From Eukaryota sp. GEM-RC1 (Eukaryota), in assembly GCA_040285855.1 (NCBI GenBank), contig JAUFOQ010000013.1, forward strand, positions 1,240,001 through 1,304,000: 64,000 nucleotides of DNA. The letters are read 5' to 3'. The notes under the pieces were generated by a model. That model was not told the DNA's origin and did not search any database. It worked only from the letters and a program-made list of their open reading frames with translations. The stretch's first letter is position 1; each line of letters starts with the position of its first letter. Position numbers and translations under genes: made by a program. Shown piece after piece: positions 32,770 through 51,317 of this stretch.

Positions 32770-35120
32770 ATGACTTTCCTTGCTCGAAATCTTCCTCAGT
32801 CTATATGGACTAAGCTTCCCAAAAGTGAACTTCACTGTCATCTTGATGGTAGTATGCGCGTGGAAACAGTCATCGAACTAGCTGAAATGTATGACGTCTC
32901 CATTCCTACAACTGACGTTGAAGAACTCCGCAACTACCTCACTGTTCCCTTTGAATGTCTCAGTTTAATCGACTATCTCAAAGGCTTTGCTGTCACTTGC
33001 TCAGTTCTCCAAAACGCATATGCTCTTAAACGAACAACCTACGAAATCTGTGAAGATGCTGCTAAAGACGGAGTCCGATACCTCGAAATCCGCTTTGCCC
33101 CTTCACTTCACACTCAAAAGAACCTCTCCGCCACTGGAGCCGTGGACGCTGTCTGTGCTGGAGCCATGCTAGCTGAACACAAGCTTCCCATTACTGTTAG
33201 AATCATTGTCTGTGCTATGCGTCATGAATCTTCCTCTCTAGCTTTGGCCATTGCTGAGATTGCCTGGAGGTACCGTAATCGTGGTGTAGTTGGATTTGAT
33301 CTTGCTGGTCCCGAAGATGGTTTTCCTCCAGCTAATCACAAGGAAGCCTATGATATCATTAGAAGTAGAGGTCTCAACGTAACCGTACACGCTGCTGAAG
33401 CTAGTGGCTGGGAAAGTGCACGTGATGCGATGTTGTATTGTGGAGCTAAGAGGCTCGGGCATGGAGTTCGAATTCAGGAGAATCCAGAGTTTGCATCATT
33501 TGTGGCAACTTCTAACGTGTTGTTGGAGGTGTGTCCAACTTCTAATGTTCAGACTAAGTCGATTAAAGAACTGGAAGATCATCCTTTTTAAAATATCTTA
33601 GAATGGGGGTTCCCGTGTCTATCTGTACTGACAATACCCTAATGAGTGGGGTTAAACTTTCCTCTGAGTTGAAGTTAGTTGCAGATACTTTTGATTTGAC
33701 CTTAAATGAGCTAGTTGAGATGCTGTACCATGGTTTTTCTGCTGCTTTTGTTAATCCTTTGAGAAGAGATGTTCTAAGAGAAGAAGCCCTGATGAACTTG
33801 TTAGAGTTGTTGAGAGGTTTAGTGACGGAGGGAAGTTTAGAGAATGAGCATTTGGAAGAGGTGTTTGTGAAGTTGTCATCATTGGAGGGTGGATATGAAA
33901 TTGTTAAGAAATTTAAAGAATCAGAGGCCAGTTATATCAAAAACCAGAAAATTTTAAATATTTCAGCTGACGTCATCCAATCACTTCCCAAAGCCGACCT
34001 TCATTGTCGATTGATTGGAAGTGTTCCCCTAGATGTAATGTGGAAGGAAGTCGAGCTCTTAGAAGAAAACACTGATGAATACAACATCTTTTGCACTTCC
34101 CTCGAAGACACTGCACTCGTAGAAGTCTCTTCTTACCACTCTTTTGCTTCTTTGTTATTTCCTGAGAGACGTACTAACAGAGGGTATGAAAGGGCTAAGA
34201 ACATTTGTGCAGCTTTGTTGCGTAGTCCAGCACAAATTAAAAGAGGAGTTGCCGCTGTTTTACAGAGAGCGATTGATGATAATATTGTTTATTTGGAACT
34301 TGTGGTTCAACCTCATTTTCACACGTCTTCGATACTTTCCACTTTTGATTCAGTGATTACGACTATCAATCAAGCCATTGAGGAAGAATTAGAAGTCCTA
34401 AAGAAAACTTCTAATGCTATCCCAATTGTTCACATTGTTATTGCTTCCAGAATCAACACAGATTCCCTAGAAGTCACTAGAGGTCTCGCAGCTGCTGCCA
34501 TTCGAGCCAAAAAGACACAGCCTAGAGTTATTGGATTCGGAGCATACGGAGGTGAGATTAGTGTGGCAATGTTCAAGAATGGATATGCTGAAGTGTTTAG
34601 ATCTCTACAAGAGAACTTTCTACGTTTGTATGTTTCTGCAGGAGTAAAAGATCCTTGTAGTATCCTACCAGCCCTCACTGCTTCAGCCAATCGACTGTCA
34701 TGTTGCTATTCTCTTCACAAGAAACCTGCTTTAATCGAGTCATTGGCATTGCATCGGAACAAGATTGCTTTAGAAATGACACAATCTAATAACTTTATGG
34801 ATTATACTTCTGAAACCAAGAGTTTCTCTGAGAATGTTATTAGGTTTTACTTAGAGAATGGTGTTTCTATAGCTATTGTATCTATTAATAGCTTGATGTC
34901 TGGTACTTTTACTGAAGCACGAGATAGTAGCTTGTCGAAAACGATTGCAAAGCTTGTTACTGATGCTGGTTTGACTTTGGAAGACTTGTTTAAGTTGCTT
35001 GATTGTTCTATTAGGTCAGCCAAGGTTGAGTCTAATGTACAGGAAAAGCTTTTACAGTCACTATCAAAGGCTTTTGATTCTCTCTACTGTGAATTTCATT
35101 CCAAATGCATAAGGGCATAA
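32770..35120 (+). CDS. Adenosine deaminase, tandem two-domain (second domain degenerate); frameshift ~33588
   Basis: Domain 1: LPKSELHCHLDGS, GFDLAGPE, TVHAAE, RLGHG, EVCPTSN, ICTDN. Domain 2: LPKADLHCRLIGS lacks most metal ligands. Confidence 0.9.
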
Positions 35121-35222
35121 CCCTTCACATTTTCATGATCTCATAGAGCAAAACCCACAGTTTGAACAAATAAATGTCCTCATTCGCAAAGTCTTTTAAA
35201 ACGAGCTAACTTCATAGATTCA
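35108..35222 (-). ncRNA. Candidate Fanzor omegaRNA scaffold / element right end
   Basis: Directly 3' of the Fanzor stop. Sense strand can form CUCGUU/AAUGAG, GGACA/UGUUC and terminal AAGGG-UUAUG-CCCUU hairpins. Assignment rests on position only. Confidence 0.4.
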
Positions 35223-48733: not shown

Positions 48734-50441
48734 TTATTCTAAATATTGTAAAGAATGATGTTGATAAAGTAAAACATAGCCATTTAAAGAAATCTCAGTT
48801 AATACTGTCTGTTCGTCTACACCTTTCTTGCAATCACTATTGGTATCATGTAACCACCAAGAACCTTCTTTTTCCTTTGCATATGTCACACAGTGACCGT
48901 CAGCAAGGGAATCGTAATGACAGATCGCAGACAGCAGTCTGTATGTGTATTTTTCTTCAACACTACTTTTGGTCTTGGTTGACACTTTGGCGGTTGAGGT
49001 TCGACTGGTACTTCTTTCCCAATCACTACCTCTAACAAAATGCTGACTCCCACACTTTCTTTCATTTTCATTAGAAATGTCAAAGACAGACAATTCTTCT
49101 GATGTTGGATAATGAGACAATGTGTAAATGTCCTTAAGTGGCAGTTGTGAGTTGATTTCATTGGTAGGGGAAAACTCAATCGATTCTGAACCCAATTGTG
49201 CTTCAGAAGACAGGAATAGATAGAGTGATAGATTTGAAGAAATAGTAACTGGTTGAGGATGTCCAGTCAGTCTAATGATAAGAGCTTTTGGAAGAGAAGC
49301 AAAAGTTTCAGTAATTTCTGATTTTTGTTCAGGACAAGTAGCACAAATTATTTCTTTTCGAAAAGGTAGATGAGCTTGCAACAATGATTCGAGATCGGTT
49401 GGTCTTGAAGGATACCGCCTTCGGATACTTTCCTTGTTAATTTCCAAGGCGAAGTGAATTTTAGATGTCGGATCAGTCCCACACCAAGAACATTTTGTTG
49501 TTGTTTTAATACAGAAACAAAATGCATTAACAGCACAAAAATGCTTTAATTTTTGAGTTATCAACAATTGATCTAAATCTTGCTGAAGTGATGATTTGAC
49601 ATCTAACTGAGTCTGAACTTTTTTTGGTGATGGTTTCTCATCTAAATCATATCCATAATATTGGAAGTCTGTAGTATCAGTTTCTTCTGATTCAGACTGT
49701 GGTTCAAATTTTTGACAAAGAGTGTAATTCATCATTTGATGAAGATGGCAAGGTGGTGCGGAATTCCTTGTCAAGTTTTTTTAAAAGTTTGGCAAGGAAA
49801 TTGAAAGGATCGTGTTGACCCGCCGCAAAAACAGGATAAATGTCAGCGATTTGCGCACGAACACCTTCAATATCTTTCGTATAAAAACAATTGAAGAGAG
49901 GAGTAGCAGAAGTATCAAAATCTAGTTCTTTGAAATGATTTACATTGAGTTCGAAGAAACGTTCAATGTGACGTATAATAAAATGGATAACTGAATAGAC
50001 ATAACAACAATCAGATGAAGTAGAAATTGAAGGAGTAGTAGTTTTAACAGGAATGGCAAGAGCCTCGTTAACTGTTTTAGTCAAACTGGAAAGAGAAGAA
50101 GGGGATACTATCAGGTTATGAGATGAGAGGGTGGTTTTTACGATGAAAGATATCACGTCGCTAATACACTGTGTATCTTCAAGGGGAGTGATTGCACGAA
50201 GATTAGAGGACGATGCTAAGCTGAAAAGGAACTTTGTTTGTGCAACGTCTGATGTTACAAGAACGAGATTGAAATGGTATTGAATATGTCCATTATACAC
50301 TACGACAATGAAGAAGTCGCCCGCAGTGTCTTGGACGATGACAATTTCAACATCTGTAACTTCCGCAGGAATGTCATTTACGAAGTCTAGTTGCATCTGT
50401 TGTTTGGGAAAACGTTGGCGGACACGGAATGATGTTGACAT
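48734..50441 (-). CDS. USP (C19) deubiquitinase-like protein; frameshift in T-run ~49780
   Basis: Cys box DCCYVYSV, GQHDPFNFL, CSWC..CATC fingers, SLPKALIIRL, YRLLSAICHYDSLADGHCVTY..WWLHD. Confidence 0.75.
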
Positions 50442-51317
50442 GTTTGTGCAGAGAGGAAAATTTATGTCCTAGTCTATTATTACAACAAAGATTCCATTTT
50501 TGACTTTCAATCAATACAATAGGGTGGGTTTATTCATTCCGTGATGAATTTGTCATTCACGAGGATTAATGTTTTACTATAACTAACTAATACAGGATCA
50601 ATAAAGGAACCAGTGAAGTAGAAATTCAAGGAGTAGTAGTTTTAACAGGAATGGCAAGAGCCTCGTTAACTGTTTTAGTCAAACTGGAAAGAGAAGAAGG
50701 GTTAGGCAAAATCAGGTCTTGACACTTAATTCGTGGAAGTCGCCATTGATTATTCGTACGATCATACACTTGAAGGTTGAGTTTTTGAGAAAGTTCCCAC
50801 ACTAAGAATTTAAGTGTCGGCTGCCACAAACCTAAGAAATCTTACCAACATAAACGTGTTCAAAAATTTGTTCACTAATCAGTCTGTTGCTGGGTTGAGT
50901 ACAAATGGCCCAGAACAATGAGCCTTAACTTTATTAATTATCTTGTGACTGGTTCTTTTCATGATGAGAACTACAGATTTACTTGAAGATACTAAAACAA
51001 TTTTTTATTAACGAAAAGTTTAAATCAAAAACATTCTGTATGAAGAGTTTCGACAACGTCGTTGTCTATATTCAACGTTCCAATGGCAAGTTTTTGATTC
51101 ATGTGAAAATCTGGATCACCATATTGGAGAGCAAATCTGTGGACCAAGTTTTGTTCACTTCGTTCTTTTCTTGAATAATGGGTAAGGCGTCTACGTCTAA
51201 AAAATTTCTCTTCATAGAAACAAGCCTTGAAAGTTTTTGGAACTGAATCAGTTGTAATTAAAACTTTTGTAACTCAAATACAACTGCACTTGTGGATAAA
51301 CAGTAGATTTTCAACAT

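Follow-up and report, generated by a model that had tools for sequence, protein, structure and literature searches.

Positions 1,240,001 to 1,304,000 of contig JAUFOQ010000013.1 of Eukaryota sp. GEM-RC1 (64,000 nucleotides (nt), assembly GCA_040285855.1) were analyzed here as a whole and are referred to as the window, with positions counted from its first letter. The assembly is reported to combine nanopore reads with Illumina correction, to contain 14,268 proteins and to comprise 48% repeats (PMC11316075). The window is eukaryotic, with a host-like GC content of ~36% and compact host genes whose introns are ~30 nt long and start with GTATGT. Our subject is the island that follows the single-copy adenosine deaminase (ADA) gene, which ends at 35120 and forms a protein cluster of size 1. 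From ADA to 50600 lie a Fanzor1 nuclease and a clan CE protease (both within what we call element C), gene U, a DEAH helicase (element D) and a USP gene.

A preliminary description, made from the letters alone, had placed at 35108..50600 an intron-free island of Fanzor, three ubiquitin-like proteases and an RNA helicase with no visible transposase. The island itself stands, with its Fanzor and its helicase and with no host gene between the end of ADA and 50600. The repeat-rich tract goes on beyond 50600, to ~58300. The lack of introns holds for the reading frames checked but not for a 35-nt candidate intron of host-like consensus just 5' of C (40589..40623, minus strand). That description contained neither the PolB exonuclease nor the 2A motifs, and mentioned neither the hairpins of the leaders nor the mosaic of gene fragments found at 50600-52060.

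Element C and its relatives

Element C (35220..40583, minus strand) runs through five overlapping frames in the order leader, 2A, SENP8/Ulp1-like protease, degenerate PolB exonuclease, Fanzor1 and zinc knuckle. Its clan CE protease domain (39540..40187, minus) carries HW..D..Q..DCG, matches Peptidase_C48 at E=4e-6 and has SENP8 as its top PDB match (E=3.4e-4). The 3'–5' exonuclease domain of PolB type (38230..39010, minus) is detectable with PF03104 at E=9e-8, with its ExoI/II/III acidic motifs lost and the acidic catalytic positions replaced. The Fanzor1 nuclease region (35490..38010, minus) contains three RuvC motifs, AIDPN, VDEFKTS and NRDFNS; sequence similarity (PDB matches over 35220-38010 to SpuFz1, E=7e-5, and PpFz1, E=9e-4), the acidic residues of RuvC-I/II/III and a zinc finger together identify it as Fanzor1. 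All 10 matches to the first C frame are labeled Eukaryota sp. GEM-RC1.

Element C is one gene, split by frameshifts in this sequence: the frames overlap and other copies read across breaks. P0017 continues from 2A through protease and exonuclease to the Fanzor N-terminus in one frame, and a single frame leads from the exonuclease to RuvC-I in both P0078 and P0087. Two of the five breaks in C are read through by other copies. Across the island, 10 of 12 frame breaks, with positions judged by eye, sit at homopolymer runs of at least 5 bases, as compared with 7.9% of 12,042 background windows, so most of them are likely homopolymer errors of long reads. A bacterial-like alanine dehydrogenase gene (442-1577, plus strand; named by eye) also has one frameshift: host genes break too. 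A 39-nt GT..AG intron in Fanzor was considered and rejected, as the stretch aligns as protein in relatives. C and gene U start head-to-head, ~115 nt apart (40583-40698), an arrangement that suggests a shared two-way promoter.

The order 2A, exonuclease, Fanzor is conserved in a second species. The relative P0125, labeled Eukaryota sp. TZLM3-RCL (1,473 amino acids, 36% identical, four cluster members), joins in one frame 2A, a complete Fanzor and an exonuclease of PolB type (PF03104 E=5e-13) in which SFDVET, GYNCDKFD and YCVND are kept. P0264, under the same label, is likewise a single frame with 2A, SFDVET / GYNCDKFD / YCxND and all RuvC motifs; the acidic motifs of the exonuclease are present in P0125, P0264 and P0266. 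As P0125 is without the protease, the protease is the variable part of the fusion. In a quick tree built from 60 of the 86 usable Fanzor rows, six Skoliomonas-labeled Fanzors lie on one side of a branch and the 54 other rows on the other (Shimodaira–Hasegawa-like approximate likelihood ratio test, SH-aLRT, 99).

Leaders, element D and adjoining genes

Tandem units followed by a 2A-like motif open four window frames: C and D in the island, and two further elements, A and B, described below. In C, two leader units (40299..40555, minus), each with a predicted ~22-bp hairpin and a shared motif (40493-40517 and 40337-40361), precede a 2A/StopGo-like motif at 40188..40247 (minus; ..DLTADGDIESNPGP). 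D has two identical 153-nt units (48234..48551, minus; motif at 48487-48511 and 48334-48358), for which hairpins of ~38 bp with G-U pairs are predicted, and a 2A/StopGo-like sequence motif at 48182..48241 (minus). The consensus D[VI]ExNPGP is exact in both C and D, and A has NPDP; among 269 proteins compared, 47 contain the 2A motif, 45 of them in the exact D[VI]ExNPGP form. Between copies the leaders vary in number, from 1 to 7 units, and swap between cargoes: the cargo start PVTQE stands behind three leader types and PLSKD behind at least three, and two cargoes follow a leader of one type.

In predicted folding, the C and D leader hairpins rank first and second among 1,278 100-nt windows, with z scores of −5.15 and −5.25 for the C units and −5.03 for D, and both are weaker on the other strand (−2.1 for D). 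Between C and D the 25-nt apical motif is 80-92% identical, versus 33-40% for stems and flanks; it has six matches where 0.00 are expected, although the search pattern was itself derived from those sites. At the apex, the 7-nt loop has the sequence AUUGCAC in C (40493-40517) and AUAGCAC in D (48487-48511), resembling alanine anticodon loops, perhaps by chance. Rfam left the leader motifs unmatched, returning only three tRNAs at gathering score and three sub-threshold snoRNA matches, and the cores of the hammerhead, hepatitis delta virus (HDV) and twister ribozymes did not fit the leaders by eye.

Element D (45006..48583, minus) consists of leader, 2A, a region without family match and the DEAH helicase. 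It parts from its paralogues at ~45006 and is without the C-terminal part present in them; joined to it there are the unassigned frames of 42696..45005 (minus), the last of which matches Helicase_C at E=8e-4, below cut-off. The ESM Atlas gave no usable match for the 43.8-44.9 kb frame or for D residues 410-1010. Some database models of D include a 38-nt intron; it was rejected, as P0053, P0104 and P0105 read the stretch as protein. The suggestion that two elements meet at 42300-42650 is not borne out: there is no end motif there, C and D share their leader motif across it, and a clearer junction lies at ~45006.

Three ubiquitin-like proteases had been proposed. Two of them, the C protease and the USP of the UCH family (48734..50441, minus), are borne out by family matches. 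The USP (UCH E=2.4e-8) occupies two frames, with the Cys and His boxes in separate frames, and has no 2A. The third, gene U (40698..42215, plus; also no 2A), is Ulp1-like by motif order only, with H-W..D..Q..C in the correct order by eye: it had no Pfam or PDB match, and against a profile built from 10 related Ulp1 domains it scored no better than shuffles, with hhalign uninformative. Two AlphaFold models of U are of low confidence (predicted local distance difference test, pLDDT, 34 and 46), and a fold search with such a model listed no protease, which excludes nothing.

Beyond 50600 stands a stand-alone PIF1 helicase (55308..57761, plus), which matches cellular Pif1 (E 2e-41) more closely than the Helraiser helicase (5e-22). 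After it comes a tandem array (57885-58284) in which a 15-nt unit is repeated 26.7 times. The 15-nt unit weakly resembles 51236-51274 (E=0.003). PIF1 locus tag 010083 lies two genes from the divergent Fanzor tag 010085.

Copies, rearrangement and a second pair of elements

Copy evidence for the window genes is membership of protein clusters. C has 44 cluster members on contigs of 11 different lengths, and D, U, the Fanzor middle and PIF1 have 14, 16, 18 and 19, versus one for ADA; the copies are 76-97% alike. The possibility raised at the outset that the genes are single-copy is thereby set aside for C, D, U, the Fanzor middle and PIF1. In four of 15 cases a D tag has a C or Fanzor tag at a distance of 6-8 genes, near the spacing in the window (shift-null p 0.016-0.034), whereas among control tags 1 of 37 falls within 10 genes (Fisher p 0.02 versus D). 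The linkage gives modest support to co-movement of C and D, in a test of little power whose locus-tag lists sample a much larger family thinly.

The mosaic at 50600..52060, with no single strand, is made of 42-108-nt pieces of the USP, D, Fanzor, the 43-44 kb frames and both leaders. Island-gene fragments at 77-100% identity make up 586 of its 1,460 nt, and three pieces abut at 51109 and 51216. With these fragments beside the USP and the departure of D from its paralogues at ~45006, the island is rearranged. The orientation of the mosaic pieces was considered as a guide to an RNA or a DNA template; judged by eye it is mixed and favors neither. Within the mosaic, a piece of a C-type leader hairpin is followed in frame by what resembles a fragment of a leucine-rich-repeat gene (51420-51600, plus). 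Past it, at 52605-52986, a CNOT1-like fragment of 127 nt (DUF3819 E=0.008, below cut-off) is repeated three times in tandem.

A second pair of elements lies outside the 35-50 kb island, at 3.7-10.6 kb. Element A (7718..10501, minus) has a tandem leader, its 2A-like motif (NPDP), two Ulp1-like domains and the start of an exonuclease with DIET; element B (3699..6625, minus) has 100-nt leader units, a 2A motif and a superfamily-1 helicase. The two share a 17-nt leader motif that differs from the C/D motif and is absent from Rfam. Each leader-motif pair, C with D and A with B, thus comprises a protease-exonuclease gene and a helicase gene, which points to paired units under one leader motif (n=2).

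Several other features adjoin this pair. A candidate intron of host consensus lies 5' of A (10584-10609), and a tRNA gene (10793-10864, plus) stands head-to-head ~200-300 nt from the A 5' end, with none near C or D. Between A and B, 6625-7700 contains abutting host-gene fragments on the plus strand, including a methyltransferase piece (PF10294 E=2e-5) and a WD40-like piece that is presumably DCAF7-like. A 28-nt inverted repeat pair (96%, 695 nt apart, 16320-17070) is possibly a small element with terminal inverted repeats (TIRs). A dispersed repeat family occupies 2070-3290, 14468-15660, 18500-19250 and 59395-60770. By motif, their translated pieces resemble the zinc-knuckle and restriction-like endonuclease (RLE) end of retrotransposons that lack long terminal repeats (non-LTR elements); Pfam, NCBIfam and PDB gave this endonuclease reading no support.

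Origin, mechanism and relation to known systems

We consider it the best explanation, at a probability of roughly 45%, that the island is a rearranged multi-copy set within a large non-autonomous element that is moved in trans, probably as DNA. The pairing of genes, the inverted gene inside, the intron candidates and the lack of a tail argue together for a large element moved as DNA, and the host-like intron candidates on the 5' side of A and of C by themselves lean toward a DNA route. A large non-autonomous element had already been proposed, and we too prefer it; co-mobilization is the weaker part of that proposal, being modest and confined to C with D. The absence of visible mobility genes noted at the time was upheld: Pfam searches of 164 window frames (36 + 128), PHROGs searches of 13 and NCBIfam searches of 12 matched no transposase, reverse transcriptase (RT), HUH or capsid family. 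Nor was there, in this window, a packaging ATPase, polymerase core or integrase, or, among its frames, a Rep-HUH domain fused to a Helitron-type helicase. Within this window, the island lacks the defining genes of an autonomous non-LTR element, a TIR element, a Helitron (Rep-HUH) or a large DNA virus or Polinton.

A number of results weigh against this explanation. No element ends, empty site or mobilizing enzyme was seen. The search of 14 candidate end zones for TIRs and target duplications found best pairs of 9-12 nt, where shuffles reached up to 14, so no TIR pair rises above shuffles, as had been noted before; no TIR with a DDE transposase was found in the window, where true ends are undefined and a short TIR could be missed. 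U tags lie near C or Fanzor in 0 of 14 cases and PIF1 tags in 1 of 14, and the positive control, a Fanzor piece beside its own N-terminal piece, scored only 0-1 of 14, marking the test as weak; the linkage p values are uncorrected for ~30 tests. In the cluster look-up, 6 of 10 queries, including both USP pieces, were without an entry in the protein collection. At the 3' end of C, the candidate guide-RNA scaffold zone (35121..35520, minus) has a weak folding signal (z −2.11, and −0.40 for 35100-35330), and Rfam had no match there, leaving no scaffold defined. At the break near 36380 (minus), 13 of the 15 listed Fanzor-middle copies stop and none of the 15 reads through, so a real or programmed frameshift is possible at this point. 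An A-rich run near 36380 is shaped like a slippery heptamer, which would allow a programmed −1 frameshift, with a systematic sequencing error the likelier origin. Finally, 2A in mobile elements has been reported from retrotransposons, which favors a retrotransposon origin.

Such an origin is the foremost alternative, doubtful but possible: C, D, A and B would be separate non-LTR retrotransposon derivatives, their RT exchanged for cargo, spread through RNA by an RT acting in trans and piled up with U, the USP and PIF1. Reports on elements of this kind describe 2A ahead of the endonuclease in non-LTR elements with an apurinic/apyrimidinic (AP) endonuclease, some with N-terminal deubiquitinases (PMC3708506; bioRxiv 10.64898/2026.06.17.732966), and Ulp1-like domains that lead NeSL and Utopia-1_TSP (PMC4640811). 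The variable, swappable leaders, the better fold of the D hairpin on the sense strand (z −5.0 versus −2.1) and the failure of U and PIF1 tags to track C also fit, as do the dispersed repeats at 2070-2900 and 18500-19100, which look by motif like RLE ends of non-LTR elements. Set against this, 17 2A-led matches among 377 candidates, mostly short fragments, contain no RT; the C 3' end has no poly(A) or simple tail, and no target duplication exceeds chance. The candidate introns 5' of A and C speak against an RNA route, and the endonuclease reading of the dispersed repeats is without backing from Pfam, NCBIfam or PDB.

It is improbable that C and its companions are host gene families expanded by segmental duplication and gene conversion, with host-regulatory 2A motifs and hairpins and a domesticated Fanzor. 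The lack of a mobilizing enzyme and of ends, the host-like start contexts and intron candidates, and an architecture old enough to occur in two species are what such families would present, and 2A is also reported from non-mobile eukaryotic genes (bioRxiv 10.64898/2026.06.17.732966). Yet copies 76-97% alike on contigs of 11 different lengths contrast with the single adjacent host gene, C ends only ~100 nt from the ADA stop codon, and Fanzor1 is described as a transposon passenger (PMC3627910).

Still less probable is a Helitron-like rolling-circle element with captured gene fragments spanning 35120-58300 and including PIF1. Fanzor1 is reported in non-autonomous Helitron2 elements (PMC3627910), and the multi-copy PIF1, the fragment mosaic, the tandem array at 57885-58284 and the missing TIR would suit it, but a Rep/HUH domain is absent, PIF1 lies nearer the cellular Pif1 than Helraiser, and its tags seldom lie near C or Fanzor. 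Large DNA viruses are among the carriers of deubiquitinases, helicases and PolB domains. The proposal of an endogenous piece of such a virus or of a virus-like element, for which Fanzor in large DNA viruses (PMC10530073) and the viral use of 2A could be cited, is the least probable, as capsid, packaging ATPase and polymerase core are missing from this window, neither of the two queries P0078 and P0047 has a viral-contig relative, and the GC content is host-like. For P0125, no related locus turned up on metagenome contigs.

If the island is indeed a large non-autonomous element moved in trans, its working may be pictured as follows. Transcription of each gene would start in a 5' module of its own. 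In translation, the ribosome would read the variable leader, skip at NPG/P and free the cargo with a fixed N-terminus. The predicted skipping would let leaders grow or swap without harm to the enzyme. The shared hairpin motif probably serves, on the RNA, as a binding site, and the mobilizing enzyme would be encoded elsewhere. Cutting of empty sites favors copy-in repair in the case of TnpB; Fanzor would likely cut empty sites with a guide from the element 3' end, again favoring copy-in by repair. An intact exonuclease would trim the ends left by the cut; that of C is likely dead. Ubiquitin-like tags would be removed by the proteases (possibly NEDD8 by the SENP8-like one), and the helicase would act on RNA. 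A bolder version, in which a portable hairpin-array and 2A module, open to any cargo, defines a new metamonad element class, recognized in trans through its RNA motif and inserted under RNA guidance by the exonuclease-Fanzor in place of an endonuclease of its own, with neither a transposase nor a protein-targeted endonuclease driving insertion, seems to us unlikely.

By analogy, the island would resemble a Fanzor1-only non-autonomous element in its working and a 2A retrotransposon in its expression. With the former, as described in PMC3627910 and PMC10530073, it shares Fanzor1, three RuvC motifs, a zinc finger near the 3' end, multiple copies and no transposase of its own. It differs in that Fanzor is here the C-terminal part of a 1,470-1,800-amino-acid protein, behind 2A and the PolB exonuclease (and, in C, the protease), and in that the search for a TIR, a target duplication or a Helitron end came up empty. 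With the 2A non-LTR elements (L1Tc, Ingi, CR1, L2, Crack, Rex1) it has in common the N-terminal 2A before a long nuclease-bearing frame, and some of these are reported also to carry N-terminal deubiquitinases (PMC3708506; bioRxiv 10.64898/2026.06.17.732966). Unlike in those elements, no AP endonuclease or RT is seen here, a Fanzor, an exonuclease, a Ulp1-like protease or a helicase serves as cargo, and the leader is a tandem of predicted hairpins. Ginger DNA transposons reportedly carry Ulp1. A Ulp1-like protease on a mobile element is also described for NeSL and Utopia-1_TSP (PMC4640811). Compared with all three, the island has 2A and Fanzor, and the frame with its Ulp1-like protease includes neither RT-RLE nor a DDE transposase. 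In engineered exonuclease-Cas fusions, a second nuclease is joined to an RNA-guided RuvC nuclease; the exonuclease here is a natural DEDDy 3'–5' enzyme of PolB type, behind 2A.

Searched by title, the literature yielded no published description of a naturally occurring fusion of Fanzor to an exonuclease or to 2A (supplementary lists of the 2026 2A survey may contain these peptides), and no published link of 2A with Ulp1 and a transposon, of Fanzor with Ulp1 or of NPGP with a DNA transposon. A natural 2A-exonuclease-Fanzor, intact in one species, offers a test of what Fanzor does for the elements that carry it and of whether a fused exonuclease alters repair once the cut is made, an effect that engineers pursue by hand. 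The leaders would make 2A an adaptor that joins unrelated enzymes to RNA structures which are repeated and freely swapped, a use beyond the retrotransposons and viruses in which it has been described. If C and D do move together without a known transposase, a deep-branching eukaryote would harbor a mobilizing system that has gone unrecognized.

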